Shown: positions 4,781 through 52,630, counted from the stretch's first letter. The stretch: 56,106 nucleotides of DNA from Candidatus Kuenenia stuttgartensis (GCA_943332855.1 CALQRA010000003.1:1-56106); one strand, 5' to 3'. A program made the numbers and translations. Notes: a model not told the origin generated them from the sequence alone.

Positions 4781-5069
4781 ATGAAGACGACCGTCGATCT
4801 CCCTGATGACTTGTTCATCGCCGCCAAGCAAAGGGCGGCTGAACTACGACAGCCCCTGCGGGCACTCATCGAGCGTGGACTCCGGGCCGAACTTGGTCGC
4901 TCGACTGTCGCGGCGGGCAGGGCGAAGCCCGTCGCCATCCGTTGGGTGACCGTTCCCGGCGGACTTCCTGCCGGCGTCGATCTGTCGGATCGGTCTGCCA
5001 TGCACGATTGGCCTGCGGAGCCGCGCCTGGCCTGGAGGGCTCGGCGCCGGCCGAGCAAGCGACTCCTGA
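4781..5069 (+). pseudogene. Ribbon-helix-helix (VapB/DUF2191-like) antitoxin with an apparent +1 frameshift near 5012; no cognate toxin
   Basis: MKTTVDLPDDLFIAAKQRAAELRQPLRALIERGLRAEL... is a CopG/RHH antitoxin-type start. The frame has no stop until 5773 (running antisense through queE). Dropping one C at 5012 gives ...MHDWLRSR... and a TGA at 5067-5069. Confidence 0.6.
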
Positions 5070-5070
5070 G

Positions 5071-5790
5071 TCACGTGCCGCGGCGGTTGCCATACCAGGC
5101 GATGTGGTGGCGGGGGGCGAGGCGGAGCCCTTCGCTGGCACAGGCCGCAGCGAGCCAGGCGGTCGTTGCTTGCAGGGCTGTCGGGGCGGTTCCCTGCGGC
5201 ATCACAAACACCCTTCCCCGTGGCAGCCGCCCCGGGCCGAGGGCGGCTTCGAGATCGTCGAGCCAGGCGAGCACCTCGTCGAGATCGGCCCGCGACCCGA
5301 CGACAAACTTCAGCTGCCAGCGCGGCGCGCGGAGCATCGCCACGAGGATGTCGTCGCGGCGCCGAGCCGCGGCGTGGCGGGCGTGCCAGCCGCCGGGCGT
5401 GTCGGGCGGAGGGGCAGAGGAGGCGAGCTTGGGGCTGATCGAGAGGAGATCGGCGAGGGTCTCAGCGCCGGCCGCTGGCGGCAGGATCGTCCCGGCCGTC
5501 TCGATCGTCAGGTGTCGCCCCCCCTCCCTCAAGCTCGCGCAGAGATCGGCTGCATCGGCGGGCAAGAGTGGCTCGCCGCCGGTGAGGACGACGTGGGGGA
5601 GATCGAGGGCGGCGACGGCCGTGCGGACACGCTCGATCGACCATTCTTCCCCCACCGGCTTCCAGGAGGTGAAGGGGGTGTCGCACCAGTGGCAGCGGAG
5701 ATTGCAGCCGCTGGTTCGCACGAAGGTGCTCGGCGTGCCGGCGAGCAGCCCTTCTCCCTGCAGCGAGGCGTAGAGCTCGGCGATCCGCAC
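5071..5790 (-). CDS. queE: 7-carboxy-7-deazaguanine synthase (radical SAM)
   Basis: 'IAELYASLQGEG...TFVRTSGCNLRCHWCDT', 'VVLTGGEPLL', 'HLTIETAGT', 'SISPKL'; next to queC. Confidence 0.93.
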   Translation of the reverse strand: MRIAELYASLQGEGLLAGTPSTFVRTSGCNLRCHWCDTPFTSWKPVGEEWSIERVRTAVAALDLPHVVLTGGEPLLPADAADLCASLREGGRHLTIETAGTILPPAAGAETLADLLSISPKLASSAPPPDTPGGWHARHAAARRRDDILVAMLRAPRWQLKFVVGSRADLDEVLAWLDDLEAALGPGRLPRGRVFVMPQGTAPTALQATTAWLAAACASEGLRLAPRHHIAWYGNRRGT

Positions 5791-5798
5791 GTGGTCGG

Positions 5799-6536
5799 TC
5801 AGCTCCCCGAGACGCGCGGATCGTCGATGCCCACAGCCGCGAAGCCGGCGGCGCGGAGCCGGCAGGAATCGCAGTGGCCGCAGGGGCGGCCTGACGCGTC
5901 AGGGTCGTAGCAGCTCGTCGTCAGCCCCTGATCGAGGCCGAGCTCGACACCCAAGGCGACGATCTCGGCCTTCGTGAGGTCGACCAGCGGCGCCACGATC
6001 TCGGGGGCATGCCCCTCGACCCCCGCCTTTGTGGCGAGCGTCGCGAGGTGCCGAAAGGCGTCGAGGAACTCGGGGCGGCAGTCAGGATAGCCGCTGTAAT
6101 CGATGGCGTTGACGCCGACGCCGATCGCCGTCGCGCCGCGGGCCTCGGCGAGGGCCAGGGCGAGGGCGAGAAAGACGGTGTTGCGGGCCGGGACGTAGGT
6201 CGTGGGAATCTCGGCCGCCAGGGCTTCGTCGGGGCGGTCGCGGGGAACGGGGATCGCGGCATCGGTCAGGGCGCTGCCGCCGAAGGCCGCCAGGTCGACC
6301 CGGAGCACGACATGGTCAGTCAGGCCGAGGTGGGAGGCGAGGGCCTTTGCGGCGTCGAGCTCGCAGCGGTGGCGCTGGCCGTAATCGATCGACAGCCCGA
6401 TCACCGCAAAGCCCCGCGCCCGGGCCCAGGCGGCCACCGTCGCCGAATCGAGCCCTCCCGAGAGGAGGACCACCATCGTTCCCCGGGATCTGTTCGGGGG
6501 GGAGGGCAGGACCGCTTTCGGAAGCGGCGCGTTCAT
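5799..6536 (-). CDS. queC: 7-cyano-7-deazaguanine synthase
   Basis: '[12 protein letters not shown]', 'DYGQRH', '[11 protein letters not shown]', '[12 protein letters not shown]', 'TTSCY...CGHCDSC'. Start is ATG 6536 or 6476, not the ORF-track 7109. Confidence 0.95.
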
Positions 6537-6551
6537 GGCACACTCTCTTCT

Positions 6552-6944
6552 ATGACAACACCCATCCACGCCTCGCCTTCCCGCTCGCAACTTGAGGTCT
6601 TCGAAAACCGCTTCCCGGGTCGCGACTACCTCATCGAGATCATCTGTCCGGAGTTCACGTCGGTCTGCCCGAAGACGGGGCAGCCAGACTTCGGCACGCT
6701 CACCTTCCGCTACATCCCCGACAAGGTGTGCGTGGAGCTCAAGAGTTTGAAAGTGTATCTCCAGGCCTTCCGCAACGAAGGGATCTTCTACGAGAACGTC
6801 ACCAACTGCATCCTCGACGACCTCGTGGCGGTCGTCGCACCGCGGCGGATGACCCTCGTGGCCCACTTCACGCCCCGCGGGGGGATCTCGTCGCGGATCG
6901 TCGTCTCGCATCCCTCCGGGGCCGATCTCCCCCCGTCCGTCTGA
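6552..6944 (+). CDS. queF: preQ1 synthase (NADPH-dependent 7-cyano-7-deazaguanine reductase, type 1)
   Basis: '[16 protein letters not shown]', '[24 protein letters not shown]', 'FTPRGGI'; ATG at 6552. Confidence 0.95.
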
Positions 6945-7029
6945 CGCCAGCGGGCTCGGCCCGGGCGCTGTGGCCGACTTCCCTTTGACAGGCTTCCTCG
7001 ATCGCCCCCCTCCCCCGGGAATCCCCGCC

Positions 7030-8046
7030 ATGGCCCAAGCCTGCCCCGTTCTCCTCTCGGCCCTCGCCGACGAATCGGCCTTCGAACTGACGGCCGTCGA
7101 GCAGTTCACGGCGCTCTCGGCGATAGGACTTGAGTATTACTCCCTCCGGTTCATCGACGTCGGCAAGGGGGTGAAGAACGTCATGAAGCTGACGATGACG
7201 GAGATCCAGAAGATCCGGCACCTCGAGGATCGCTACGGGCTCAATGTCGCCTCGATCGCCTCGCCGATCGGCAAGATCAAGCTCGACGACGTCGACGACG
7301 GCACGAAGAACGCCTACGTCCCGTTCAAGACGTACCTCGCCAAGGATGTCGCCCGGGCCTGCGAACTGGCCCATGCCTTCGAGACAAAACTGATCCGCGG
7401 GTTCTCGTTCTATCCTCCCAAGGGGGCGCGGCCCGAGGAGTATCTGGAAGAGGCCGTCGACCGGATCGGCCGGATCGCCGAGGCCTGTCACCGCTCCGAC
7501 CTCACCTTCGGCCTCGAGGTCGAGGCGAATCTCGTCGGCCGCGACGGCCACCTCCTCGCCGAGATCCACCGCCGGGTCAATCACCCCGGCCTCGTCCTCG
7601 TCTTTGATGCCGCCAATCTCGTTGTCCAGGGCTTCTCCACCGCGGAGATCTTCAAGCAGTGGGAAGCGATGAAGCCGGGCCTCGGCTGGGTGCACATCAA
7701 GGATTATCGCAAGGTGGCCGGCAGCACTCGCGGCCGGCATGTCGACGAAGGGGGGCTGTTGAACTTCGTTCCCGCCGACCGCGGGGTCGGGGGCCACGAC
7801 CGGATCCTCGCCGATCTCAAGTCGTTCCTCCCCGCCCTCACCAAGCGACTCGATCGCCGGGGCATCCCCGGAGTGTTTCTCGATCTCGAGCCCCATGTCC
7901 GTGGCGGCGGGCAGTTCGGTGGCACGAGCGGGCCGGACGGAATGGGGATCGCCCTGCGCGGCCTGTGCCGCGTCCTCGACACAGTCAAGATCGCCTACCA
8001 CCTCCGCGACTTCGACGATCTCCTGGCTGTCCGCGGTCCTACCTGA
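7030..8046 (+). CDS. Sugar-phosphate isomerase/epimerase, xylose-isomerase-like TIM barrel (AP_endonuc_2 type)
   Basis: 'LSALADE', 'ASIASPIGK', '[10 protein letters not shown]', 'FGLEVE.NL', 'FDAANL', 'VHIKD', 'DLEPH' metal-ligand pattern. Start 7030 (or GTG 6970). Confidence 0.78.
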
Positions 8047-8063
8047 CGCTCCTCACGGTCCAT

Positions 8064-8089
8064 GGAAAAGTCATCCATGACCTTTTTCC
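8064..8089. repeat. REP-like hairpin with CATCCATG core (copy 1)
   Basis: ggaaaa-GTCAT-cc-ATGAC-ct-ttttcc, 18 nt after the stop at 8046. Confidence 0.6.
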
Positions 8090-8090
8090 G

Positions 8091-8208
8091 CTTGCTTCAA
8101 CTTGCTTCTACTCGCTTCCACTCGCTTCCACTCGCTTCCACTCGCTTCCACTCGCTTCCACTCGCTTCCACTCGCTTCCACTCGCTTCCACTCGCTTCCA
8201 CTCGCTTC
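8091..8208. repeat. 10-bp tandem repeat (CTCGCTTCCA)
   Basis: 9 exact copies at 8111-8200 plus degenerate units at 8091, 8101 and 8201; intergenic. Confidence 0.97.
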
Positions 8209-8310
8209 GGCTTGTGACGCCCCCAGAAAAGCCAAGGTTTTCGGGGGGTGGTCGGCCGCCGCATCGAGCGGCAGACATGTTGTTCACCGCCTGCTAGGGG
8301 CCATCCATCG

Positions 8311-9588
8311 ATGAGCGAATCGACCGAACCGGGCAGTTATTTCATCGCCAACTACCCCCCCTTCTCCGCCTGGACGACCGCCGCGGTCCCGGCGGTCCTC
8401 GAGGCTTTCGCCGCCCCCCCCACTGGCGCGGGCTTGGGCCTCTATCTCCACGTGCCGTTCTGCCGGAAACGGTGCAAGTTCTGCTATTTCCGCGTCTACA
8501 CCGACACCTCGGCCAGCGACGTCGAGCGCTATTCGCAGGGGCTGGCACGCGAGGCGGAGCTCGTCGCCGCGCAGCCCGCCGTCGCCGGCCGCAAGCTCCG
8601 CTACGTCTACTTCGGCGGTGGCACGCCCTCGTTCCTGTCGGTGAAGCAACTCGAGAGGCTCGTCGACGGCCTCCACCGGAGCTTCGGTTGGAGTGATGCC
8701 GAGGAGGTGACGTTTGAATGCGAGCCGGGGACACTGTCGGAGCCGAAGGTGAAAGCCCTCCGTGAGCTGGGGGTGACCCGGCTTTCGCTCGGCGTCGAGA
8801 ACTTCGACGATGGCGTCCTCGAGGTCAACGGCCGGGCCCATCTCAGCGCGGAGATCCTCCGCTGCTGGGAGTGGATCAAGCATGCCGGGTTTCCGAACAC
8901 GAATGTCGATCTGATCTCGGGCATGGTCGGCGAGACATCGGAGAGCTGGGATCGGACGATCGAGCGGACGCTGGCCCTCGAGCCCGACAGTCTGACGATC
9001 TACCAACTCGAGCTCCCTCTGAACACGACGTTTGTCCATGATGCCCGGGAGACCGGGGCACCGACGCCGGTGGCCGACTGGCGCACCAAGCGGGAGTGGG
9101 TCGGAAGGGCGTTCGACCGCTTCGTGGCGGCAGGGTACACGGTGTCGAGCGGCTACACGCTCGTCCGCGATCCCACGCGGGTCCATTTCCGCTACCGCGA
9201 CATGCTCTGGGAGGGGAGCGATCTCCTCGCCCTCGGCGTGGCGAGCTTCGGTCATCTCTCCGGCCGGCACTACCAGAACGCCCCCCACTGGGACGAATAT
9301 CTGGGGGCGGTCGAGGGGGGACGGTTGCCGATCGCCCGAGGGCTCGTTCCCACGGCCCGCGAGCTGTTCATCCGCGAGACCGTCCTCGGCCTCAAGAAGG
9401 GGGCCCTCGACGTCGAACGGCTGCGCGGCAAGTTCGGCGTCGATCCCCTCGAGGCCTTCGCCCCGCAGTGGCGGAGCCTCGAAGAGGAAGGCTGCCTGGA
9501 GCGGGATCGCCCCGCCCCCGTCCTCACGCGCCGGGGGTTGCTCATGGTCGACGCCCTCCTCCCCCGCTTCTTCGACGCCGCCCCGTGA
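8311..9588 (+). CDS. HemN/HemW-like (coproporphyrinogen III oxidase family) radical SAM protein
   Basis: 'LYLHVPFCRKRCKFCYF' (CxxxCxxC), 'YFGGGTPS', 'RLSLGVENFD', 'NVDLISG', 'LLALGVASFGHL'; ATG 8311. Confidence 0.85.
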   Translation: MSESTEPGSYFIANYPPFSAWTTAAVPAVLEAFAAPPTGAGLGLYLHVPFCRKRCKFCYFRVYTDTSASDVERYSQGLAREAELVAAQPAVAGRKLRYVYFGGGTPSFLSVKQLERLVDGLHRSFGWSDAEEVTFECEPGTLSEPKVKALRELGVTRLSLGVENFDDGVLEVNGRAHLSAEILRCWEWIKHAGFPNTNVDLISGMVGETSESWDRTIERTLALEPDSLTIYQLELPLNTTFVHDARETGAPTPVADWRTKREWVGRAFDRFVAAGYTVSSGYTLVRDPTRVHFRYRDMLWEGSDLLALGVASFGHLSGRHYQNAPHWDEYLGAVEGGRLPIARGLVPTARELFIRETVLGLKKGALDVERLRGKFGVDPLEAFAPQWRSLEEEGCLERDRPAPVLTRRGLLMVDALLPRFFDAAP

Positions 9589-9595
9589 CGGTGGG

Positions 9596-9612
9596 CAAAA
9601 GTCATCCATGAC
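9596..9612. repeat. REP-like palindrome GTCATCCATGAC (copy 2)
   Basis: caaaaGTCATCCATGAC just after the stop at 9588; shares AAAAGTCATCCATGACC with the copy at 8066. Confidence 0.6.
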
Positions 9613-9745
9613 CGGCCCCGGCGGCCGGGCAACCGGCGCCCGATTCGGGGGAAAACGGGGTTAACGCCTGCCGTGCCGTCCGGTTTACTCAGGGTAAGGA
9701 GCGCGGCACGCGGGGCCGATCAGGTCCGCTGCTCTCCCCCGACTT

Positions 9746-11641
9746 TTGGGAAAGGTGGCTGTTTCCGTGCCCAATCCCCCCGCTCTCGAGCTTCCCGGGA
9801 TCCCCGTCGATCGACCAGCGACGGCCGGGTATCCGTTGCCCGGCTCTGCACGGCCCGACGGGGGCCGAAGAACGATGAGTTGCCCCGGCGAGAAGGCGCT
9901 TCGCGATCGTCTCCGGGCGATGGCCGCTGACTTGGTGGCGTCGTGGCGGTCGGGGGGCATGCCCTCCGGGGTCCGTTCGGCGGCTGGATTGCGAGCGCAG
10001 GCCGAGTTGCTCTGTCAGCGGGCCGGGGCAGGAGCGGGCGACGTCGGCTGGATGATGGTCACGATCGTCTCCGAGCACTGGCGCGACAGGCTTGCAGCCG
10101 GTTCCAGCGGGCGGCGCCTCCTGCTCCTTCCCGATTGTCCGGTCGCTCCCCGCCTCGCGGCCGATGCCGCCCGCCCGCCACAGGTCTGTGGCCCGGGGTG
10201 TGTGATCGGGACCCTGTGGGGTGCCGCGCGGGAGCAGGGGTGGGTGGTGGAGTCGACACCGCGGGCCGTAGCCGGGATCGGCGGCCTTCTCACGGGCCAG
10301 TACGACGGCATTCTCGGAGTCGCGAGATTGGAGCATCTCGAAAAGGCCTTCGCGATGCTGCCGGCTTTCGCCCTGCCCATCGCCGCGGTTCCGTTCGATC
10401 CCTCGGCCGTGCCGCTCGTTGCCCAGTCGGCGGGCGGGGGAAGTGCCGCCTGTGCCGAAGCGGCCGCCCGATCGGGGCTCGACGCCGAGTGGGTCCTCGG
10501 TCTCCTCGGGGTGGCGGGGGGGCAGACGGCCCCGGTCGCCGATCATCTCCCGCTCCTCCGTGAGGCAGCCGAGCTTTTCCTGCCGGCAGCGCTCCGCTTG
10601 GTCGCGGCGGATGCCAGCGTGCCCGACGCCCTCGACTGGCTGGACGGGCGGCCGGAGCCGCTCATGTCCACGGCCCGCTTCGCGGCCGACTTTCTCGGTC
10701 GCGGAGGAAAGTTCCTCCGTCCCTTCATCACGCTGGCTTCCTTCGAAGCCCTCGCCGGCGCCGAATCGGGCGCGGCGCAGGTGGCCTGCCCCCCCGACCG
10801 TGTCCCCGTCCGCGCCGCGGCGGTGGCCGTCGAGGTGTTCCACAAAGCCTCACTGATCCACGACGACATCGAGGATGCCGACGGCATGCGCTACGGCCGA
10901 TCGGCCCTCCACGAAGAAGTTGGGATCCCGGTCGCCCTGAACACCGGCGACCACCTCGTCGGCCTCGGCTACCGGATCATTGCCACGCTCCCGAACGTCG
11001 ATGCAGCAACCCGTGCCGACCTCGTGGCGATGCTCTCCGATGCCCATCTGCGCCTGGCCCGCGGGCAGGGGGCCGAGTTGTGGTGGCGCGTCGGGCGCGA
11101 CACGCCGCTTTCGGTCCCGGAGGCGCTGTCGATTTATGCCCTCAAGACCTCGCCCGCGTTTGAGGTCGCGCTGTCGATCGGGATCCGACTGGCGGGCGTA
11201 CTCCCCGGGAATGCCGGGGCGGTCGAACGCTATGCCCGGCATGTGGGCGTCGGCTTCCAAGTGCTCAATGATCTGAAGGACTGGCACGGTGACCCGGAAA
11301 ACGCCCGGCAGGCTGCCGGCGACCTCCTCGGAGGGCGACCGACGGTGATGTGGGCCCTCGCCCGGGAGCGGGTCGCGGCCGACGAACTGCGGCGGCTCTC
11401 CCGCCTCGCCGCCGAGGCCCGCCAGCCAGGCGGCCCTTCCGCTGCCGAGGTCATCGCCGAGGCGCGGCGGCTGTATGGCGCAGCCGACGTCTTTGCCCGG
11501 GCCGCGAATATCGTCGATGCCGAGCGCGCAAACGCCCTCGCCGCGGCGGCCACCTGTCGGCAGCCAAGGCTCCGCGAAGTGTTCGAGTTTCTTCTCGACC
11601 TCGCTGTCCCCGAAGGGGCTGCGGCCCAACTCGTCGGCTGA
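9746..11641 (+). CDS. Polyprenyl diphosphate synthase with an N-terminal DUF116-like domain (start uncertain: 9746 or 9875)
   Basis: 'GGKFLRP', first Asp-rich motif 'FHKASLIHDDIEDADGMRYG', 'ALKTSPAF', second motif 'GFQVLNDLKD', 'GDLLGGRPT'. The N-terminal 'RRLLLLPDCP...GILGVARLEHLEK...IAAVP' resembles DUF116. Confidence 0.8.
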   Translation: MGKVAVSVPNPPALELPGIPVDRPATAGYPLPGSARPDGGRRTMSCPGEKALRDRLRAMAADLVASWRSGGMPSGVRSAAGLRAQAELLCQRAGAGAGDVGWMMVTIVSEHWRDRLAAGSSGRRLLLLPDCPVAPRLAADAARPPQVCGPGCVIGTLWGAAREQGWVVESTPRAVAGIGGLLTGQYDGILGVARLEHLEKAFAMLPAFALPIAAVPFDPSAVPLVAQSAGGGSAACAEAAARSGLDAEWVLGLLGVAGGQTAPVADHLPLLREAAELFLPAALRLVAADASVPDALDWLDGRPEPLMSTARFAADFLGRGGKFLRPFITLASFEALAGAESGAAQVACPPDRVPVRAAAVAVEVFHKASLIHDDIEDADGMRYGRSALHEEVGIPVALNTGDHLVGLGYRIIATLPNVDAATRADLVAMLSDAHLRLARGQGAELWWRVGRDTPLSVPEALSIYALKTSPAFEVALSIGIRLAGVLPGNAGAVERYARHVGVGFQVLNDLKDWHGDPENARQAAGDLLGGRPTVMWALARERVAADELRRLSRLAAEARQPGGPSAAEVIAEARRLYGAADVFARAANIVDAERANALAAAATCRQPRLREVFEFLLDLAVPEGAAAQLVG

Positions 11642-39618: not shown

Positions 39619-41181
39619 TCACCCGCGCGAGCGAACAAACGCGATGGCCAGCGCGACCGCGGCGCCGATCCCGGCAAGGAACAAGATCCAAAACAGGATC
39701 GGCAGCCCCTGGAAATGGATGTCAGTCCAGGCGGTCTTGGGCTTCGGCCGCGAAGGCTCCTCGGCGGGAGCGGCCGGCGGGGCCTGCGGGGAAGCCGCAG
39801 GCTTGGCGCGGAGGGGTGGTGATGCTCCGCCGGCCCGCGTCCCCGAGCCCTTCCGTGCCGGGGCCGACGACGTGTCGATGCGTGGCAGGCCCTCGACCCC
39901 GGAACGGTCGGAGCTCTCCTCGCCGGCGCGCCCCGAGTCGGGGAGCGATCCGGAGCCTGGGCCGCTGCCGATCAGCCCCGAGGAGCCGATCGGTCCGGAC
40001 CCACTCTCGGGTCCGCTGCGCACCACCGGGCCGGGTTGCCGGCGTGGCCCCGGCGTGGCTTGGCCCTCGGCGGAGGAACGCCGCGGGGCCCGGCGCGGGG
40101 GATCGATCCGGCCGGAGCGCTGCGGTGCCGGCGTCGAACCGAGCCAGGCGCCCAAGGCGTCGGCGACATCTTGCGCGGTCTGGGGGCGGGCGTCGGGATG
40201 CTTCTCCATCATCCGGAAGTAGAGCTCGGCGATCGCGGTCGGGACGTCTGGCCGTTTCTCGAGGAGATTCGGCGGAGGCTCGTTCATGTGAGCGCGGAGC
40301 CGCTCGGCGAGCGGTCCGGTGGCGAACGGCGCTCTGCCGACAAGGAGAAAGTAGAGGGTGCAGCCGAGGGAGTAGACGTCGCTGCGCCGGTCGGCCTTGT
40401 GGCTGTCGCGGGCCTGTTCCGGCGCCAGGTAATCGGCGGTGCCGAGCACCTTCTCGTCATGCTCGCGCGTCAGGGACGCCCCCTCGTCGCCGTTGGCTAG
40501 GGCCAGCCCCATGTCGAGGATCTTCACCGTCCCCCGCTTGTCGAGCATCAGGTTGGCCGGCTTGATGTCGCGGTGGATGAGCCCCTCGTCGTGGGCGTAC
40601 TGGAGCCCTGTCGCCGCCTGCCGGAGATAGTCCGCCGCCTCGCGGACATCGAGTGGCCCCTCAGCTTTGACCTTGGCGTAGAGATCCATGCCGTCGATGT
40701 ATTCGAGCACGATGAAATGGATCGATCCCGACGACTCAAGGTCGAACGCCCGGGCGATGTTGGGATGGTTGAGCCTGGCGGAGGCCTGCGCCTCCCGCTC
40801 GAAGCGCGCCAGATAGGAGCTCTGGTCGACGCGCTTTACCGGCAGGACCTTGATCGCCACCTTGTGATGGAGGGTGGCGTGTTCGGCGAGGTAAACGCTG
40901 CTCATGCCGCCGGCGCCGAGGAGCCTCAGCAGCTTGTACTTGCCGAGAACGAAGCCCTTGTGGCGCCCCTTGCGGAGCTGATCGACCTGCCACGGCGTCA
41001 GCTGCCCTGACTCGACCAGCACCGTGACGAGCCCCTCCGGGACCGGCTCGCCGCCGAGCGGCCGCCGCCCCTCCGTGTCGGTCCACGGGCTGAGAGCCTG
41101 ATCGATCTTGGCAGGATCGACGAGGCCGCTGGCGCGGAGCACGCGGAGGAAGTCGTCCAGCGTCTGCGAGGAGTCGCTCAT
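39619..41181 (-). CDS. Hanks-type Ser/Thr protein kinase with Pro-rich linker and C-terminal TM anchor
   Basis: 'LGAGGMSSVY', 'VAIK', 'HRDIKPAN', 'DMGLA', 'GTADYLAPE', 'SDVYSLG'; C-terminal hydrophobic helix. Confidence 0.95.
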   Translation of the reverse strand: MSDSSQTLDDFLRVLRASGLVDPAKIDQALSPWTDTEGRRPLGGEPVPEGLVTVLVESGQLTPWQVDQLRKGRHKGFVLGKYKLLRLLGAGGMSSVYLAEHATLHHKVAIKVLPVKRVDQSSYLARFEREAQASARLNHPNIARAFDLESSGSIHFIVLEYIDGMDLYAKVKAEGPLDVREAADYLRQAATGLQYAHDEGLIHRDIKPANLMLDKRGTVKILDMGLALANGDEGASLTREHDEKVLGTADYLAPEQARDSHKADRRSDVYSLGCTLYFLLVGRAPFATGPLAERLRAHMNEPPPNLLEKRPDVPTAIAELYFRMMEKHPDARPQTAQDVADALGAWLGSTPAPQRSGRIDPPRRAPRRSSAEGQATPGPRRQPGPVVRSGPESGSGPIGSSGLIGSGPGSGSLPDSGRAGEESSDRSGVEGLPRIDTSSAPARKGSGTRAGGASPPLRAKPAASPQAPPAAPAEEPSRPKPKTAWTDIHFQGLPILFWILFLAGIGAAVALAIAFVRSRG

Positions 41182-44370: not shown

Positions 44371-45555
44371 CTATCTCGGTGCTGGCAGCGGGAGCGACTC
44401 GATCGGCACGGGGGGCCCGGGGGCGACGAGGGCGCCGGGGGGGAGTTGGTCGGGGCGGAGGGGGGCTCCGTAGACCGGGCCTGTCGGCAGCGGGGCGGCA
44501 CTCGTCGTGCTGGCAGCCGGGCCGGGGAGCGTGGCGGGGAGGCCGGTGGCGGGATCGGCGGCTTGGTAGGCGGGGCCGGCCTGTGGCACCGGCGCCACGC
44601 CGAGCCGGCCGAGGATTATGCCGAGCATCTTCTGCTCGAGGAGCGGGTCGCGGCCGAGGGGGATCCAGCCGAGGTTCGGCGTCGGATTGGCGACGGGCCG
44701 CGGCTGGTCGCCGACCTGCTGGCCGAGCGTGGGGAGCGGTGTGCCGTAGCGGTAAAGCGAATCGTCGTTGCGAAACGACGCCCCGCCGGCGGTGGCCCGC
44801 ATCGGCCGGGAAAGGTTTTCGAGCTCCTTGAGCACCACCGTCTCGACCCGCCACCCGGATGGATCGGGGATCAGCCGCATTGAGCCCGAGCGGCGGATCG
44901 ACTGGAGCGTCGATTCGAGCCGCTCACGGAAGCCGACCGAATCGCCGCGCCACGGCTCGAGGAGCGTCGCGCCGGTCTGCGGGTAGGTGTCGATCCGCCC
45001 CTCGGCCGGGATGCCATTGGCAAACACGACGCGCTGCTCCGACTGGATCTTGAAGAAGTCGTCCATCGTATCGACCATCTGCTGCCAGACGACCTCGGCA
45101 TCGAGTGGCGGGATGACGACGCTGTTGCTTTGGGTCAGCGGCGGGCCGGACGCGACCTGGCCACCGGGGCCGATGACCGCGCCGGGGGGGAGCGGCGCGA
45201 AGGGGTCGGGGGACGTTGTCGGCGAGGAGAATCCGGGGAACGGGAAGAGGGGCGTCGGCGGCGGCGGGGGGAGCGGCTGTACGATGCCAGGGAGCGTTCC
45301 GGCCGGCACGGTGGCAGCGGGGGGAACGGCTGGAAGAGGCGAGACCATCGGCGCGGGCAATGTCTGGCCGGGGGCTGGGAGTTGGAGCGTGGGGACGACT
45401 GCGCCGTAGGGAGCGGCGGCGGGGGGAAGCGGCGCCTGGGCCAGGACCGTGGGCGACGCGAGCACCATGGCCGTCATGGCCAGCGCCACGGCGAGCGCAG
45501 GGAGGCGCGGAAGGAAGGCAAACAGCCGGTGGGCGGGGCGTGGCATCGGCGGCAT
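44371..45555 (-). CDS. Secreted Pro-rich hypothetical protein with a conserved-looking core domain
   Basis: Signal peptide and Pro/Ala-rich flanks. The core 'WQQMVDTMDDFFKIQSEQRV...EGRIDTYPQTGATLLEPWRGDS...ERLESTLQSIRR' resembles a planctomycete-type family. Confidence 0.7.
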   Translation of the reverse strand: MPPMPRPAHRLFAFLPRLPALAVALAMTAMVLASPTVLAQAPLPPAAAPYGAVVPTLQLPAPGQTLPAPMVSPLPAVPPAATVPAGTLPGIVQPLPPPPPTPLFPFPGFSSPTTSPDPFAPLPPGAVIGPGGQVASGPPLTQSNSVVIPPLDAEVVWQQMVDTMDDFFKIQSEQRVVFANGIPAEGRIDTYPQTGATLLEPWRGDSVGFRERLESTLQSIRRSGSMRLIPDPSGWRVETVVLKELENLSRPMRATAGGASFRNDDSLYRYGTPLPTLGQQVGDQPRPVANPTPNLGWIPLGRDPLLEQKMLGIILGRLGVAPVPQAGPAYQAADPATGLPATLPGPAASTTSAAPLPTGPVYGAPLRPDQLPPGALVAPGPPVPIESLPLPAPR

Positions 45556-45618: not shown

Positions 45619-47823
45619 TCAAGCCCAGTTCCGGCCGCGTCGCCGGCGGATCGCACGGATCGCCAGCGCCATTCCAAACCCGATCGCGCAGATCACACCG
45701 AGGCCCAAGCCGGTGGGCACCCAGACCTTTTCGCGGAAAGCCTCGGCGGGGGTGGAGGCCGAACGTGGCTCCGACTCGAGGACCGGAAACCGGGGCGACG
45801 GGGCGGGCTCGGTTGGATGGGAGAGATCCTGGGGCGACGCTGGCCCGAGCTCGGCCTCGGCCTGCGGCAGTGTTGGCTGCAGAGGCAATTCGCGTTTGGT
45901 CGTCATGTCGCGGACCATTGCTTCACGTTGGCTCCCGTTTCTGATGGCCATCACGACCAGGGGAATGGCCAGAGCCCCCGCGATTGCCGCGATCACCAGA
46001 AGACGCATCGCTCGATAGTCGACGCGCGGGCCGGCCCCGTTCCAGCGATCTGACGGTGGACGGCGCCGATCCTTCTGGCCGAGCGCCTCGCCAAACACCC
46101 CGGCGATGCTGTCGGCGTCGCGACCTCGCCCTCCCCTTCCCTGCCGATGGGCGCGGAGGATGGCGCGGACTTCACCGGCGTCGAGGTTGAGCTCGCGGGC
46201 GATATCGGTGACGGTCTGCTCGCCGAGGAGATCGTGGCCACTGGCCTCGAGCGCCGCGGCCCGGTCGAGCACGCCGTCGAAGCGCGCGTCAGCTGCTGCT
46301 CCTCGTTCGCGAGCGGCCGTCGGCGTCGCCCGCCGGTGCCAGGGAGCGGCATCGGGCAGTGGCGGCGGGGCCGCGGGGCCCATCGGGGGCATGAACCGGA
46401 GATCGGTCGTTGCGCCGGCGGCTGCGGGCAGGCCCGCGAGGGTGGCGGCGGCCGATGCGGCCGAGCGGAACCGCTCGGCGGGATCGGGCTTGAGGAGTCT
46501 GTCGAGCCAGGCGGCGACGTCGGCCGGAAGGTCGGGGCACACCGAACCAATCGGCGGGACCGTCTCGGTCGTGATTTTCCGGAGGAGCTTGAGGGGGCTC
46601 GAGGCCGACAGCGGCGGATGACCGGTGAGCATTTCGTGGAGCGTGGCGCCAAGGCTGTAGAGATCGCTCGACGGAGTGGCCTCGTCGCCGAGGGCGACTT
46701 CCGGCGCGAGGTAGGTGAGCGTGCCGAGGAGCGAGCCCGAGGCGGTGAGCGTGTGCTGTCGATCGGGGCTGCGGGCGAGGCCGAAATCGGTGAGCTTGTA
46801 GGTGCCGGCGGCGGGGCCGGTCGTGGCGAGGAGAATGTTTGCCGGCTTGATGTCGCGGTGGACGATCCCCGCCGCGTGGGCGGTGGCGAGCCCGTCGAGG
46901 ACCTGCAGCGCGCAGTCGATCACCGTCGCCGCCGGGATCGCCCCCCTCCCCTTCACCATCTGCTGGAGGCTCGCCCCCGGCACGAGCTCCATCGCCAGGA
47001 ATGGCAGCCTGGCGGCCGGGTCGAACTCATAGATCTGGACGATGTGGGGAGAGGCGAGCGACGCAGCAGCGCGGGCCTCTTCGCCGAAGCGGCCAAGCGC
47101 CCCCGCATCCTCCCCCGGCAGCGGTCGAATCACTTTCACAGCAGCGTCGCGGTGCAGCGCCTCGTCGCGGCCGCGGTAGACCGTCCCCATGCCGCCGCGA
47201 CCGAGCTCGCCAACGATCCGGTAGCGGCCGATGCGTTGCGGGCCGGGGCCCGGGGCGCTCCATGAAGCGGCTCGGTCGAAAGCCCCCGGCACATCGTGGC
47301 GGATCTCGTCAAGCGAGCGGGCGAAACGGCCAAGCGACCGCCGGGCATGATCGGTGTGGAGGAAAGCGGCCAGGCAATAAAGAATCAAACCGGGGGCGAC
47401 GCCGGTGAACAGCGTGGCCAAGACGACGAGGAGTCGGACCGGAGCCACCGGCACATCGAGCCGGGCCGCGAGTCTCCGGCAGACGCCGAGGAGGACGGGC
47501 CCGCGATCGGTCGTAGCGAAGCCTGGAGAGGAGTCTTCGGGGGGGCTGTCAGACCACGACATCACCACCCCCGCGGCAAGATAAAGGAGCACGCCGGGGA
47601 GGATCCCCGTGAACAGCGTGATCAGCGCGACGAGGAACCGGACGCCACGCACGGGGACGTCGAGGCTTCTCGCCAGACGCGCGCAGACGCCGAGGAAGCA
47701 CGAACTCCGTGACGGCGCCAGCGCGACGCCCGCGAGGGCCATCGCCACGGTGGAGATCACCCCGAACGACATCAGGGTGATCGCCCCGACGCCGAAGAGA
47801 ACGAGAAGCTCGAGGATTCCCAT
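45619..47823 (-). CDS. PspC-PspC-Ser/Thr kinase fusion membrane protein
   Basis: Two PspC-like repeats ('FLGVCARLARSLDVPVRGVRFL...PGVLLYL', 'LLGVCRRLAARLDVPVAPVRLL...PGLILYC'), an intact Hanks kinase (GRGGMG, AVK, HRDIKPAN, DFG, APE, SDLYSLG), then two further hydrophobic helices. Confidence 0.88.
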   Translation of the reverse strand: MGILELLVLFGVGAITLMSFGVISTVAMALAGVALAPSRSSCFLGVCARLARSLDVPVRGVRFLVALITLFTGILPGVLLYLAAGVVMSWSDSPPEDSSPGFATTDRGPVLLGVCRRLAARLDVPVAPVRLLVVLATLFTGVAPGLILYCLAAFLHTDHARRSLGRFARSLDEIRHDVPGAFDRAASWSAPGPGPQRIGRYRIVGELGRGGMGTVYRGRDEALHRDAAVKVIRPLPGEDAGALGRFGEEARAAASLASPHIVQIYEFDPAARLPFLAMELVPGASLQQMVKGRGAIPAATVIDCALQVLDGLATAHAAGIVHRDIKPANILLATTGPAAGTYKLTDFGLARSPDRQHTLTASGSLLGTLTYLAPEVALGDEATPSSDLYSLGATLHEMLTGHPPLSASSPLKLLRKITTETVPPIGSVCPDLPADVAAWLDRLLKPDPAERFRSAASAAATLAGLPAAAGATTDLRFMPPMGPAAPPPLPDAAPWHRRATPTAARERGAAADARFDGVLDRAAALEASGHDLLGEQTVTDIARELNLDAGEVRAILRAHRQGRGGRGRDADSIAGVFGEALGQKDRRRPPSDRWNGAGPRVDYRAMRLLVIAAIAGALAIPLVVMAIRNGSQREAMVRDMTTKRELPLQPTLPQAEAELGPASPQDLSHPTEPAPSPRFPVLESEPRSASTPAEAFREKVWVPTGLGLGVICAIGFGMALAIRAIRRRRGRNWA

Positions 47824-47824
47824 G

Positions 47825-48100
47825 TCAGATGCGATCCGTGGTGGCGGGGAGGACGCAGCCGAGGATCAGATACGCCACGAGCCCCGGGCCGATGCCCGAG
47901 AGAAAAATCGCCGCCACGGCGAGGATCCGGACGGCGAGCACCGGCAGCCCCTGCCGGCGGGCCAGCCGCCAGCAGACGCCGAGGCAGCGGGGCCCGGGGC
48001 GCGACGGCCAGGCCGACAGAAGCGCGGGCAGGACGATCGCCGCCACCGCCGCGTAGACGACGATCTCGAAGAAGCCGAACATGCCGAGGAGCGGAGTCAT
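47825..48100 (-). CDS. pspC: PspC-domain membrane protein
   Basis: N-terminal TM helix, then 'CLGVCWRLARRQGLPVLAVRILAV...GIGPGLVAYLILGCVLP'; lies between pspA and the kinase. Confidence 0.75.
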   Translation of the reverse strand: MTPLLGMFGFFEIVVYAAVAAIVLPALLSAWPSRPGPRCLGVCWRLARRQGLPVLAVRILAVAAIFLSGIGPGLVAYLILGCVLPATTDRI

Positions 48101-48157
48101 GGGAGCCTCGTGAAGAGAGGGTGAGCGGAAGGGTTTGGCAGGGAATCGCGGCGCCGG

Positions 48158-48829
48158 TCAGTTCGCCGCCGGTCGCCGCGGTTCCCGCTTCAGCCGAGCC
48201 AATTCCTCCTCGATCGCGTCTGATTCCTTGAGGGCCGCAAACGCCTCCTCGAGCGACGGCTTCTGAAGATCGGGATCGATCTCCTGAAAAGCCTCCATCC
48301 GCTCGATCCGCTGCTCGAGCTGGTCGAACTTCGTCACCGCATCGTACCGGGTGACGCGCTCGATCACTCCCCGGGTGCGCTCGTGCGTCTTGGCACGCTT
48401 GTGCCTCTGGACGAGGAGCCGGTGACGCTGACGGGCATCGACGAGCTTCGCCTCGACCGCGCCGATGTCCTCCTTGTAGCGGGCGACGACCTCGTCACAG
48501 CCAGACACCTCCTTGGCATGGGCGTCGCGGAGTTCCTCGAGCCGGCGCCGCTCGCGGATCGCCTCCCGGGCGAGGTCTTCGCGCCCTTTCTCGATCGCGA
48601 GCCGCGCCCGCTCTTCCCAGGTGGCTGTTCCTGACTCGGCCGTGGCCACGGCCCGCTCGGCCCGCTTCCGGGCGGCGATAGCGCCGGCGCAGTTGGCCTT
48701 CACCTCAACGAGCGTGTCTTCCATCTCCTGGATCATCAGCCGGATCAGCTTGTCGGGATCCTCGGCCGCGTCGAGCATCGAATTGAGGTTGGAGTTGATG
48801 ATGTCCTTGAGTCGCGTGAAGACACCCAT
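48158..48829 (-). CDS. pspA: Phage shock protein A (PspA/IM30)
   Basis: 'MGVFTRLKDIINSNLNSMLDAAEDPDKLIRLMIQEMEDTLVEVK', 'KGREDLAREA', 'KFDQLEQRIERME', 'IEEELARLK'. Confidence 0.95.
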   Translation of the reverse strand: MGVFTRLKDIINSNLNSMLDAAEDPDKLIRLMIQEMEDTLVEVKANCAGAIAARKRAERAVATAESGTATWEERARLAIEKGREDLAREAIRERRRLEELRDAHAKEVSGCDEVVARYKEDIGAVEAKLVDARQRHRLLVQRHKRAKTHERTRGVIERVTRYDAVTKFDQLEQRIERMEAFQEIDPDLQKPSLEEAFAALKESDAIEEELARLKREPRRPAAN

Positions 48830-48876
48830 GGGAAAGGCTCCTGGCCAAGGGGGGGTGGGTTGATGGACGGATGAGA

Positions 48877-48893
48877 TGCACGTGGCGTGCCGA
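48877..48893 (-). promoter_or_regulatory. Sigma54 (-24/-12) promoter of pspA
   Basis: Minus strand TCGGCACGCCACGTGCA = GG-N10-GC, close to the consensus TGGCACG-N4-TTGC; 48 nt above the pspA ATG and adjacent to a divergent bEBP gene. Confidence 0.85.
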
Positions 48894-48928
48894 AGGCGTG
48901 TCGGGGAGTCGCTGTCTGGCGGACGGTC

Positions 48929-49064
48929 GGGGGGACGCCCCTGCGCCTCGCCGGACGCTCGCTTCGGCCATCCATGGCTTCTCGCTCGCTCGACGCCGGC
49001 CGCGCTTCGCCCTCCTATCCTGCGCTTGCCGACGGCGCCGCCTCGGCTGCAGGGACGTCCCCCC
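48929..49064. mobile_element. MITE-like element B (136 bp, 16-bp terminal inverted repeats with 1 mismatch)
   Basis: GGGGGGACGCCCCTGC ... GCAGGGACGTCCCCCC. Contains GCCATCCATGGC, its left ~50 nt align with the reverse complement of element A, and it is flanked by TC on both sides. Confidence 0.65.
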
Positions 49065-49100
49065 TCCCTGGCAACACGAAGAAGTGGAAAGAGAACTGTG

Positions 49101-49154
49101 TGGTTAAAATTGCCAGGTATGGCAGAATATGCCTTGGATTGGTTTTTATGACCT
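49101..49154. promoter_or_regulatory. Three candidate PspF upstream activator sites
   Basis: TGGTTAAAATTGCCA (49101), TGGCAGAATATGCCT (49120) and TGGTTTTTATGACCT (49140): all TGG-N9-CCW with AT-rich cores, spaced 19-20 bp. Confidence 0.65.
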
Positions 49155-49175
49155 TTTTTCCCGGGGAGTGCTCTC

Positions 49176-50183
49176 TTGCGTGTCGAAGAGGCGATCGGTC
49201 GCTCGGAAGCGTTCCTGGCGTTCACGGAGCGGCTCTCCCGGGCCGCGGCCGTCGATCGGCCGGTCCTGCTGATTGGCGAGCGGGGGACCGGCAAGGAGCT
49301 GGCAGCGGCCAAGCTTCACTACCTCTCGCGGCGCTGGGAGGGGCCCTTGGTGGCCCTCAATTGCGCGGCGCTGGTGCCGGCGCTGGTCGAGGCGGAGCTC
49401 TTCGGGCACGAACAGGGGGCGTTCACCGGCGCCACCCGGGAGCGGGCGGGGAGGTTTGAGGCGGCCGATGGCGGCACGCTCCTCCTCGACGAAATAGGCC
49501 TGGTGCCACTCGAGGCCCAGGAAAAGCTCCTCCGGGTCGTGGAGTATGGCACGTTCGAGCGGGTGGGGAGCTCGCGGCCGATGCGGGTCGACGTCCGCAT
49601 CGTCGCCGCCACCAACGCCGATCTCCCCGCCCTCGCCCGGGCCGGGCGTTTCAAAGAGGATCTCCTCGACCGGCTGTCGTTCGAGGTCCTCCGTGTGCCG
49701 CCGCTCCGCGAGCGGCGGGAAGACATTGCCATCCTCGCCAGGCACTTCGCCGGCCGGATGGGGCGCGAGGTCGGGGGTGATGCGGCGCCGGAGCTCACCC
49801 CTGAGGCGCGCGCGAAGCTCGACGCCCACCCTTGGCCGGGCAACATCCGCGAACTCAAAAACGTTGTCGAGCGGGCGGTTCACCGGGCCGACGGGGGGCC
49901 GGTGGGCGCCGACTCCGTCGACTTCGATCCCTTTCGGCGCCCCGGTGAGCCGGTCGCCGGGCCAACCAGTGGCCCTTCTTCAGTCGATCCGCCGGCGGTG
50001 CCAGGCCGCCCCACGCTCCCATCGTCGCTGCCCGAGGCGGTCGCCAGTCTCGAGATCGAGGCCCTCCGGGGCGCCCTCCGGGCCACCCGTCACCATCAGC
50101 GGAAGGCGGCCGCGCTCCTCGGCCTCAGCTACCATCAGTTTCGTGGCCTGTTCCGCAAGCATGCGGCGCAGCTCGAGGAATGA
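49176..50183 (+). CDS. pspF: Psp operon transcriptional activator (sigma54 bEBP lacking a receiver domain)
   Basis: '[11 protein letters not shown]', '[15 protein letters not shown]', 'LLLDEIG', '[14 protein letters not shown]', PspF-type HTH '[19 protein letters not shown]'; no N-terminal sensor; divergent from pspA. Confidence 0.93.
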
Positions 50184-50278: not shown

Positions 50279-50953
50279 TCAGCCGGCGCCGAGACGCTGC
50301 GCCAATTCCTCGAAGCGAGCGGCAAAGCGCTCGTGGGAGGTGTGGAGGTGCTCCCCCTGCGAGATGAACCGCATCCGGTCGTCGCGCCCCAAGCCGAGGT
50401 CGGCAAAGACGCGTTCGAAGGGGCTGCGGGCATGGGCGTAAACAATCAGCAGCTTGTGCTCGTCGAGCTGAACCTCGATCGGCCGCTCCGGATGGAGGAC
50501 CGCGATCCCGGTGCAGCCGTCGTCGAGGAGGAGATTCTCGAAGTCCCAAAGGACGCTCTCGAGCACCGTCCGCTCGACCCCTTCGCGGGTGACCTCGACG
50601 GGTGAGCCGCCGTCGCCATGGCTCGATTCGAGAACGACATCGACCGTGTCGCCAAGCGGTTCGAGGAGGCCGAGGAAGGCCTCGAAGAGATCCTCGCTCG
50701 AGACGGCACCGACCAGTGCCGGCAGCTTGGCCCCGCCGGAGGGATCGACGTAGGTGTCGAAGCGGTACCCGGCCTGGGGCACGACGTCGAGCTGCCAACT
50801 GGGGCGGACGGCGTCGGTGAGGGTGAAGCGGCCGTAACGACGGCGGGCGAGATGGGCCTCGAGCGTCGCGCGGTCGGGGGACGACACATCGGCGATGGTC
50901 GGGGCACGGCGGCCAGACTGGGTGGCGGCGAGGTAGTCGTCGAGGAAGCGCAT
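50279..50953 (-). CDS. Conserved hypothetical protein (planctomycete-type); start uncertain
   Basis: Protein-like sequence 'YGRFTLTDAVRPS...GYRFDTY...DTVDVVLESSH...LLDDGCTGIAV...EVQLDEHKLLIVYA' in ORF 50279..51220. Confidence 0.7.
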   Translation of the reverse strand: MRFLDDYLAATQSGRRAPTIADVSSPDRATLEAHLARRRYGRFTLTDAVRPSWQLDVVPQAGYRFDTYVDPSGGAKLPALVGAVSSEDLFEAFLGLLEPLGDTVDVVLESSHGDGGSPVEVTREGVERTVLESVLWDFENLLLDDGCTGIAVLHPERPIEVQLDEHKLLIVYAHARSPFERVFADLGLGRDDRMRFISQGEHLHTSHERFAARFEELAQRLGAG

Positions 50954-51157
50954 GATGGGGGTGCAGAGGAGAAGTGCGGTGATGGGAGGACCGTCAGGGA
51001 CTTCCCTCGGCGGTTCGCACAAACCTAGGCCACGCTGGCCCGCCGTGCGCCGCCGGCCCCCCCACGGCCGCGGATTCCCCGTGGCCCGGCGGCGGTCGTT
51101 GCCCTCCAGCCACACGACCCGCATAATCCGCGCTTCGCCACCACCAGGAGACGCCTC

Positions 51158-52630
51158 ATGGACGGGAAAATCGTCGCCACCGGGATCACCTTCGACGACG
51201 TGCTGCTGGTTCCCCGGCACTCCAGCGTCGTCCCCGCCGAGGTCGATGTCGCCACCCGCCTGACGCGCGGGATCGCCCTCAAGATCCCGATCGTCAGCTC
51301 ACCGATGGACACGGTGACGGAGAGCGAGATGGCGATCGCCCTGGCCCAGGAGGGGGGGCTGGGAGTGATCCACAAGAATCTCTCCGTCGAGCGCCAGGCG
51401 GAGGAGGTCGACAAGGTCAAGCGGAGCGCCAACGGGATCATCGTCGATCCTGTCACCCTTCCCCCCACCGCGACGGTGGCCCGGGCCCGCGACGTGATGG
51501 ATCAGCACAACATCTCCGGGGTGCCGATCACCTCCGACGGGAGGAAGCTCGTCGGCATCATCACCCGCCGCGATCTGCGGTTCCTCGAGAGCGGCGACAC
51601 TCCGATCTCCGACATCATGACGGGGAGCGGCCTGGTGACGGCCACCGGCAACGTCACGCTCGACGAGGCCGAGAAGGTGCTGATGGCCAACAAGGTGGAG
51701 AAGCTCCTTCTTGTCGATGCCAGGGGGCATCTCACCGGGCTGATCACGATCAAAGACATCGACATGATGAAACGCTTCCCCCACGCCTGCAAGGATCCGC
51801 AGGGGCGGCTGCGGGTCGGGGCGGCGATTGGTGTCTTCGATTTCGAGCGGGCCGAGAGCCTGATAGCCAAGGGGGTCGACGTCCTCGTCGTCGACAGTGC
51901 CCACGGCCATTCCGACAACGTCATCGAGACCGTCGCGGCAATCAAGAAACGCTGGGCAATTGAGGTGGTTGCGGGGAACGTGGCAACCCGGGAAGGCTGT
52001 CGCGATCTCATCAAGGCTGGCGCAGATGGAGTCAAAGTCGGGATAGGTCCCGGGTCGATCTGTACCACACGGGTCATCTCCGGTGTCGGCGTTCCCCAGA
52101 TCACGGCGGTCTGGGAAGCGGCGCAGGAGGCGGCCGGTGCCGGCGTGCCGGTGATCGCGGACGGAGGGATTCGCTACTCGGGAGACATCACCAAGGCGAT
52201 CGCCGCCGGGGCCCATTGCTGCATGCTCGGCGGGTTGCTGGCGGGTGTGGCGGAAAGCCCGGGCCAGACGGTGCTCTACCAAGGGCGCACGTTCAAGGCC
52301 TACCGCGGCATGGGATCGCTCGGGGCGATGGTCCAGGGGTCGAGTGAACGCTACCGGCAGCGATCGAGCGGGCGCGGCGGAGACAAGTTGGTTCCGGAAG
52401 GGGTCGAGGGGCGTGTGCCCTTCAAGGGACCCTTGAGCGTGTTCGTCTATCAGCTCGTCGGCGGCCTGCGGGCCGGGATGGGCTATTGCGGCACGCGGAC
52501 GATCGATGAACTGCGGCGCGATGCCCGGTTCATTCAGGTGTCGGCGGCCGCCGTGCGGGAAAGTCATCCACATGACATCGTCATCACCCAAGAAGCCCCA
52601 AATTACAGCGCTCATCCGAAGCAGGAGTGA
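51158..52630 (+). CDS. guaB: IMP dehydrogenase
   Basis: '[10 protein letters not shown]', 'SSPMDTVTE', CBS pair, '[14 protein letters not shown]', '[10 protein letters not shown]', 'VPEGVEG'. Confidence 0.97.

Follow-up and report, generated by a model that had tools for sequence, protein, structure and literature searches.

A phage shock cassette with a PspC-containing Hanks-type kinase in freshwater Pirellulales

Signalling by the phage shock protein (Psp)/IM30/ESCRT-III membrane-repair system is thought to proceed either through protein sequestration, with PspBC, PspA and PspF as partners, or through two-component systems, as in Firmicutes and Actinobacteria. We analysed a stretch of 56,106 nucleotides (GCA_943332855.1, CALQRA010000003.1:1-56106; hereafter the window, by which we mean the whole stretch) that carries a 4.6-kb cassette at positions 45619-50183, where pspF is divergent from pspA, a small pspC and a gene encoding a Hanks-type Ser/Thr kinase with two PspC domains. 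The window is part of a 4.9-Mb metagenome-assembled genome (MAG) that is 91% complete, and all the genomes compared with it are also MAGs. Our preferred reading, to which we give a probability of roughly 0.55, is that of a lineage-specific Psp cassette joining the PspF/sigma54/PspA circuit to an active, membrane-embedded, PspC-anchored Hanks kinase that would take part in a stress-sensor mechanism. If this is true, a Hanks kinase mounted on PspC within a PspF/sigma54 operon adds a third logic, Ser/Thr phosphorylation, to envelope-stress sensing.

The pspFABC genes have been reported in Proteobacteria, Nitrospirae and some spirochaetes (PMC11237479). In the same systematic survey of Psp systems, PspC is found fused to histidine kinase, HAAS, Toastrack, PspB and zinc ribbon domains only, and is inferred to detect a membrane-proximal signal in the PspC-histidine kinases (Ravi et al. 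2024, PMC11237479). The main text of this survey does not mention Ser/Thr kinases or Planctomycetes in the context of PspC or Psp (PMC11237479). Full-text literature searches retrieved no published description of a PspC-Ser/Thr kinase, or of a planctomycete phage shock protein together with a kinase. The lack of a characterised precedent, put forward in the original prediction made from the sequence of this locus, thus agrees with both the survey and the searches. The modules themselves (Psp core, PspC sensor, Hanks kinase) are known, their wiring is one for which we found no description in the literature searched, and the locus is a real and conserved variant of Psp. Of the outcomes named beforehand as refuting the original prediction, none emerged wherever a check could be made.

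The Psp core and its control region

The cassette comprises one gene on the plus strand and three on the minus strand. The former is pspF (49176-50183, +), which encodes a sigma54 enhancer-binding protein of 335 aa without N-terminal regulatory domain, made of an AAA+ domain with the GAFTGA motif, an AAA lid and a Fis-type helix-turn-helix (HTH). The latter are pspA (48158-48829, -), encoding a classical PspA/IM30 protein of 223 aa, mini-pspC (47825-48100, -), whose product of 91 aa has one N-terminal transmembrane (TM) helix and a PspC core devoid of C-terminal tail, and the gene of the PspC-PspC-Hanks kinase (45619-47823, -), a membrane protein of 734 aa. There is no open reading frame (ORF) between pspA and pspC. 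The junction between pspC and the kinase gene reads ATC TGA C ATG, i.e. a single nucleotide separates the stop from the start and the two frames differ. Terminator-like sites are absent between the genes of the cassette; the few that were found lie within ORFs, at chance frequency. These coordinates agree with the gene order, the divergent pspF, the tight packing and the size of the kinase given in the original prediction, and the gap of 1 nt that it reported is confirmed. All assignments of the four proteins by hidden Markov models (HMM) exceed the Pfam gathering thresholds, and this includes the four families named at the outset (PspC, Pkinase, PspA_IM30 and Sigma54_activat).

PspF scores 443.8 bits against the TIGR02974 equivalog of NCBIfam (cutoff 443.55), and Pfam identifies Sigma54_activat (199 bits), AAA_lid and HTH_8. 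The AAA+ domain begins at residue 7. Residue W54 aligns with the tryptophan of Escherichia coli PspF, in a column that is W in 77 out of 78 PspF sequences and that we take to be the PspA-contact residue W56 of the E. coli protein. PspA matches PF04012 (PspA_IM30) with 138.5 bits (cutoff 33.9) and the TIGR02977 equivalog with 236.7 bits, slightly below the cutoff of 242.95. Its identity with enterobacterial PspA is 43%, and in the N-terminal helices it hardly differs from the E. coli protein. The genome has another, divergent PspA/IM30-like gene (PF04012, 48 bits; G000, contig C19:1342-1920), outside the window and unlinked to the cassette.

A sigma54 promoter had been predicted in front of pspA. 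It corresponds to the -24/-12 element GGCACGCCACGTGCA (48877-48891, -), a GG-N10-GC box located some 48 nt upstream of the start codon of pspA. The window has 13 matches to the sigma54 consensus with two mismatches, when 13.6 are expected, and GGCACGCCACGTGCA alone is not significant. Yet in each of the six genus-level loci a GGCAC-N5-xxGC/GT box occurs at the corresponding place, with variable spacer and flanks, and the other genera of the family have TGGCAC-N5-xxG(C/T) upstream of pspA in nine out of nine loci. The GT variant of the box, present in these other genera, also occurs at the pspA locus of E. coli, used for comparison. The element is therefore credible because of its conserved position across relatives, not because of the bare pattern. 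Since rpoN is also present in the genome (contig C25), the predicted promoter probably stands.

Just upstream of the pspF start we find AT-rich quasi-palindromes resembling upstream activating sequences (TGGCAATTTTAACCA, GCATATTCTGCCA and others; 49101-49154, -). They are of the type TGGC-N7-(G/A)CCA and are conserved across the genus loci, one of which (in genome G010) has the perfect TGGCTTTTAAAGCCA. They are candidate PspF-binding sites. Between them and the sigma54 promoter lies an inserted GC-rich inverted-repeat element of about 140 bp (48925-49068, no strand assigned), akin to miniature inverted-repeat transposable elements or repetitive extragenic palindromes. The genome has 14 copies of this element, at 73-87% identity; a strong hairpin is predicted for its fold (z = -5.3). 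Between pspF and pspA, the orthologous loci contain no copy (G010), one copy, one inverted copy (G011) or two copies in tandem (G012). As a result, the distance between enhancer and promoter ranges from about 110 to more than 350 bp. The promoter box, the presence of rpoN, a PspF lacking the regulatory domain and carrying both GAFTGA and W54, and the E. coli-like N-terminus of PspA together suggest that the classical PspA-PspF-sigma54 core is very probably intact.

Architecture of the PspC-containing kinase

In the protein of 734 aa, Pkinase matches residues 201-453 (46465-47223, -) with 152.8 bits against a cutoff of 31.7, and PspC matches two stretches, with 50.3 bits in the protein scan (cutoff 25). 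When scored separately on the DNA, the first PspC domain (47560-47709, -) obtains 31.6 bits and the second (47359-47505, -) 37.7 bits with PF04024. Both exceed the Pfam threshold, so the N-terminal repeats are PspC domains as originally claimed. The pattern LGVC..R...V..VR......TG..PG...Y is invariant in the two copies, and the marks of the family are all present: an Arg-rich amphipathic helix, a conserved Arg and, at the centre of a hydrophobic segment, G-x-x-P-G.

We drew the layout of the protein from the agreement between hydropathy, secondary structure in AlphaFold2 (AF2) models and the alignment of orthologues. At the N-terminal side, a TM helix (TM0, residues 1-38) precedes PspC1 (~40-91), which an acidic linker joins to PspC2 (~107-156), and a basic juxtamembrane helix comes next. 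The kinase domain is followed by a Pro-rich linker and by a three-helix HTH-like module (residues ~512-562; 46138-46290, -; containing EQTVTDIARELNLDAGEVRAILRAHR). The protein ends with TM helix 4 (residues 604-630; 45934-46014, -; hydropathy 2.77 and a helix in AF2), a variable Pro-rich loop, and TM helix 5 (residues 700-726; 45646-45726, -; from hydropathy and alignment) with the tail RRRRGRNWA. The catalytic motifs are all intact and invariant in 22 orthologues: the Gly loop G205-V215, K230, E249, HRD at 322-324, N329, DFG at 346-348 and APE at 373-375. For this reason the kinase is predicted to be of the active type and not a pseudokinase. Its N-terminus is probably outside, since this is required by both topologies that have a cytoplasmic kinase. 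The kinase domain and the HTH-like module would then be in the cytoplasm, between the N-terminal PspC anchor and the two C-terminal TM helices. Each PspC of the kinase is either a single span or a hairpin; the PspC segment has been described as a 'cryptic TM' (PMC11237479).

The small PspC encoded upstream scores 31.1 bits with PF04024 (cutoff 25). It has hydrophobic segments at residues 1-33 and 49-88, and only three residues follow the latter, that of PspC. The TM0-PspC module of the related kinases of other genera, described below, shares 64-67% identity with it, versus about 44% for the standalone PspC of these genera. Scanned in all six frames, the whole 4.9-Mb MAG has PspC at three places only, i.e. 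in mini-PspC and twice in the kinase, each of them above the cutoff.

The closest NCBIfam model of the kinase is PknB_PASTA_kin, which matches the kinase domain only, with 268.7 bits against an equivalog cutoff of 450. The kinase domain also matches strongly the PADLOC models PD-T4-6 and mad6 (up to 268 bits), as well as MAD6 and PglW of NCBIfam. One could thus regard the protein as a kinase of phage defence (PD-T4-6, Stk2 or MADS type) whose gene just happens to lie beside psp genes. However, these matches are confined to residues ~196-470, the generic kinase domain, and fall well short of the equivalog cutoffs of NCBIfam, e.g. 166.9 bits versus 460 for MAD6. There are no other defence genes, and the fusion to PspC and the conserved psp operon context also speak against this role, which we find very improbable. 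We have set the defence-kinase matches aside as generic similarity between kinase domains.

The HTH-like module, of about 46 aa, is common to all the kinases of the operon, including the PspC-less paralogues described below, and is private to them. It is present in 19 of the 81 genomes of the family (5 of 12 genera). Nearly all of these genomes have one hit, in the psp-linked kinase; G530 has four, one of which is on a contig that was not inspected, and two hits are weak. The AF2 model of the module alone (predicted local distance difference test, pLDDT, of 77) has the order helix-helix-turn-helix. The best Pfam match, HTH_Tnp_ISL3, has 18.5 bits, below the cutoff of 27.4 (E = 1.4e-3). Profile searches of the PDB gave E ≥ 0.12, and Foldseek gave E ≥ 1.4 with TM-scores ≤ 0.46 by query. 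None of these matches is significant, hence the term HTH-like instead of HTH. The weak neighbours in sequence and fold are nearly all HTH DNA-binding domains (homeodomain, GerE, Rex, DeoR). This, together with the conservation across genera of a module private to the operon kinases, could indicate a membrane-tethered transcription regulator. The module would bind DNA, e.g. the psp control region, or else the HTH of PspF, and the kinase domain would control it, in the manner of the membrane one-component regulators of the ToxR/CadC type. Given the lack of any significant match, and the ease with which small three-helix bundles resemble HTH folds, we consider this explanation improbable.

Distribution of the cassette and kinase-Psp links in Planctomycetota

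The hosts of the cassette are uncultured freshwater planctomycetes from one family of Pirellulales. The full synteny guaB-up313-pspF-pspA-(pspC)-kinase-down394-ilvD, with pspF divergent from pspA and with up313 and down394 as flanking genes, was found in 12 of the 16 MAGs of the same genus, where the kinases are 54-91% identical. In two sister genera guaB-up313-down394-ilvD is contiguous, without psp genes in between. Therefore, the 4.6-kb cassette is an insertion whose boundaries match positions 45619-50183. Its insertion between up313 and down394 is specific to the genus of the window. In the genera g303, g305 and g310 the operon is at another genomic position: pspF is again divergent from pspA and pspC, which are followed by a PspC-kinase and, optionally, by a PspC-less kinase preceding it. 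The PspC-kinase of these genera has the architecture TM0-PspC-kinase-HTH-like-TM, with a single PspC and about 540-560 aa. Relative to the proteins of the window, PspA is ~60-64% identical and the kinase 47-52%. One genome (G530) has the whole cassette twice. The cassette, inserted here, differently positioned in other genera and duplicated in G530, thus behaves as a unit.

The extra kinase that lies between pspC and the PspC-kinase in some genera is a paralogue with the same HTH-like module and a multi-TM C-terminus (L174, in contig C34 of G530, 6618-7688; L179, in G711, 3298-4356; L098/L175, 3367-5187). We ruled out that the tandem kinases of L098 are an assembly artefact because the arrangement recurs in G530 and G711. 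The standalone pspC is missing in the lineage of G010 and GCA_003669605.1, where the kinase gene comes directly after pspA and the PspC-kinase is kept. Hence, the conserved partner of pspA is the PspC-kinase, not the small PspC.

Altogether, the operon is present in at least four genera of one family of Pirellulales, and patchily so. A search for the pspF-pspA-pspC-kinase synteny had been proposed for Planctomycetota and for the wider Planctomycetes-Verrucomicrobia-Chlamydiae group. The conservation across genera was recovered, the broad distribution was not. Outside the family, but within the order, we found PspC in short frames only. An exhaustive phmmer search with the N-terminal 200 aa of the kinase against 1.84 billion representatives returned a handful of clusters, all of them PspC-kinases of this group or relatives with a single PspC.

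The genes that flank the cassette are older residents of the locus. The product of down394 (44371-45555, -; 394 aa) carries a signal peptide and is rich in Pro at the N-terminus; its gene is conserved beside ilvD even without the psp cassette. Pfam gives no match for this protein, and its close homologues in planctomycete metagenomes number over 500, with 65-75% identity across the C-terminal ~70%; it appears to be a widespread uncharacterised envelope protein of planctomycetes. We rejected it as a member of the operon, because it is a widespread hypothetical protein that was at the locus before the arrival of the cassette. On the other side, a long ORF between guaB and pspF (50279-51220, -) overlaps the start of guaB, and its true start is probably near 50953. 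The conserved part, of about 224 aa, has no match in Pfam or NCBIfam and is syntenic in all relatives, including those lacking psp genes.

Links between kinases and Psp proteins were also searched in 401 evenly drawn genomes of Planctomycetota. PspC is rare (41 of the 401 genomes) and PspA is found in 106. Fusions between PspC and a Hanks kinase occur in 11 of the PspC-bearing genomes, including that of the window. The other ten have the reverse order, with the kinase at the N-terminus, often a zinc ribbon, and then multiple TM helices or a PDZ domain; they are from families f27, f43, f100 and f89. We scanned 7 of the 11 fusion proteins with Pfam and retrieved both Pkinase and PspC in all seven. 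The (zinc-ribbon)-Pkinase-PspC(-PspC)-multi-TM proteins (L058, L059, L060 and L065 in f27, L068 and L069 in f43, L070 in f100, L071 in f89; L060 was not itself scanned against Pfam) show no linkage to pspA. The PDZ domain is found in the fusion of L069, and the kinases of L068 and L065 have a gene for a PspF-like sigma54 activator beside them. A word-indexed search with a kinase-first query retrieved only itself and the known PspC-HATPase and Toastrack types, and is uninformative on the breadth of these fusions.

Another type of link was found in families f80, f85 and f59. There, a bona fide pspA is directly followed by a gene encoding a kinase with a PspA_IM30-like coiled segment and then a TM helix (L080, in G127, 7949-10672; L082, in G222, 4176-6905; L081, in G150, 6350-8407). 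Two of the three proteins also have an extracytoplasmic Kelch beta-propeller. We interpret a kinase with a PspA-like segment next to pspA as a second, independent linkage between kinases and Psp. The long 'fusion' frames with PspA matches in L083-L088 were discarded, as they are stop-free read-through in high-GC sequence and not fusions.

We then placed these kinases in a maximum likelihood tree of the kinase domains. The ten kinases of the psp operon form one clade (100/99 support), and the kinase-first PspC proteins are apart from them, in two well-supported clades. Therefore, the fusions are independent. The window encodes another Hanks kinase about 5 kb from the cassette (~40150-40947, -), which has ilvD and a glutaredoxin-like gene as neighbours in relatives too; in the tree it belongs to an unrelated clade (own_C3_40947 groups with other_L023_14493). 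Hanks kinases thus became attached to Psp modules on at least two to three independent occasions, and we regard this recurrence as our strongest argument for a functional association. The independent kinase-PspC fusions in several planctomycete families, together with the kinases beside pspA in others, suggest that the association was selected and is not accidental. Planctomycete genomes have dozens of Hanks kinases (23 matches in the one analysed here) and the cassette is patchy in the family, which might result in the fortuitous adjacency of an ordinary membrane kinase, functionally unlinked to the psp genes. This seems to us hardly probable: the kinase contains PspC, which is found nowhere else in the genome beyond the cassette, the operon is kept across genera at 47-52% identity of the kinase, a single nucleotide separates the kinase gene from pspC, and the kinases of the operon are monophyletic.

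Proposed mechanism and comparison with known systems

In the mechanism that we favour, PspA would inhibit PspF at rest. Membrane stress would alter the state or the oligomerisation of the PspC modules, i.e. the two of the kinase and mini-PspC. The altered modules would engage PspA at the membrane, freeing PspF, and would also activate the kinase, probably via dimerisation and autophosphorylation of the activation loop. The kinase would then phosphorylate PspA and/or PspF, or other targets in the envelope. Because the kinase gene lies in a PspF-dependent operon, the level of the kinase would rise with stress, making a feed-forward loop. The phosphorylation of PspA, of PspF or of other substrates is here purely conjectural. 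Two limits apply to the study as a whole: the freshwater Pirellulales that host the cassette are uncultured, and all statements on mechanism are inferences.

A wider interpretation, which we hold as tentative, concerns the phylum. PspA, as a homologue of ESCRT-III, would be under direct control by Ser/Thr phosphorylation in Planctomycetota, Hanks kinases would have been recruited to Psp repeatedly and independently, and the present locus would be the clearest example, with a PspC-gated kinase acting on PspA and/or PspF. Membrane damage would switch both polymerisation and transcription, through kinases that are fused to PspC in either order or to a PspA-like segment beside pspA. In eukaryotes, control by Ser/Thr phosphorylation has been reported for ESCRT-III subunits.

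The presence of the kinase gene inside a sigma54 operon would also be expected if the kinase were an output of the regulon and not a sensor. Induced under stress by PspF and sigma54, it would phosphorylate targets outside Psp, such as proteins of envelope biogenesis or division, and would broaden a one-operon regulon to a global response. PspC would then be only a membrane anchor or a docking site for PspA. There are no Ser/Thr columns specific to kinase-linked PspA, as this explanation would have it. It also fits the PspC-less paralogous kinases in the operon of G530 and G711, which indicate that this family of kinases can do without a PspC anchor. However, the fusion of PspC with Hanks kinases at least twice more, independently, is hard to square with a neutral anchor, and the kinases with PspA-like segments encoded beside pspA point to direct contact with Psp components. 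We consider the role of regulon output possible but doubtful.

Several observations weigh against our preferred reading of a kinase integrated in stress sensing, among them the absence of specific Ser/Thr columns in PspA. Kinase-linked PspF has only two such columns (T17 and S/T284), and phylogeny alone could explain them. The hydropathy of the Arg-rich helix of PspC2 leaves its topology ambiguous. The full-length AF2 model of the kinase, based on an alignment of 22 close orthologues, is poor (pLDDT 44.9), and it was used for secondary structure alone. Of the three kinases with PspA_IM30-like segments, only one exceeds the Pfam cutoff (45.5 bits), and the other two fall short of it with 26.4 and 24.0 bits. 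Mini-PspC has no C-terminal tail, and so lacks the leucine-zipper-like domain that follows the TM segment in full-length PspC, whereas the standalone PspC of sister genera (~134 aa) keeps an Arg/Leu-rich tail, which we read as a putative coiled coil. PspB (PF06667) has no match at E ≤ 0.1 in the 91%-complete genome. Finally, the PspC core described by Pfam is presumably not the part of enterobacterial PspC that binds PspA. With a core-only PspC, no C-terminal tail and no PspB, sensing may differ from the E. coli model. Nevertheless, a compact system of four genes with conserved cis elements could reveal what the poorly understood PspC core senses, and the output of this core would here be an assayable enzymatic activity.

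The enterobacterial Psp system of E. coli and Yersinia, in which pspF is divergent from pspABC(DE), shares with this locus a divergent PspF that lacks the regulatory domain and has both GAFTGA and the aligned tryptophan, a sigma54 promoter before pspA, a PspA that is 43% identical, and a membrane protein with a PspC domain encoded downstream. It differs in that the cassette has no PspB and its standalone PspC is a core of 91 aa without C-terminal tail, while the operon includes a Hanks kinase with two PspC domains, an HTH-like module and two further TM helices. The PspC-histidine kinases of Actinobacteria (PspC/LiaF-LiaI-TM-HISKIN, with a REC-HTH partner; PMC11237479) also place PspC at the N-terminus of a signalling kinase, as its sensor module in the membrane. 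These are two-component systems in loci without PspA and PspF, whereas here we find a Hanks Ser/Thr kinase, without cognate regulator, inside a PspF/sigma54/PspA operon. The Pkinase-PspC fusions of other Planctomycetota resemble the present protein in that a single membrane protein combines a Hanks kinase with one or two PspC domains, but they place the kinase first, are not encoded beside pspA and belong to separate clades of kinases. Finally, the PASTA kinases PknB and Stk1 are, like this protein, anchored in the membrane and endowed with a Thr/Ser-rich activation loop. Unlike them, the kinase of the cassette has no PASTA or other extracellular sensor domain, and has instead intramembrane PspC domains at the N-terminal side of the kinase.

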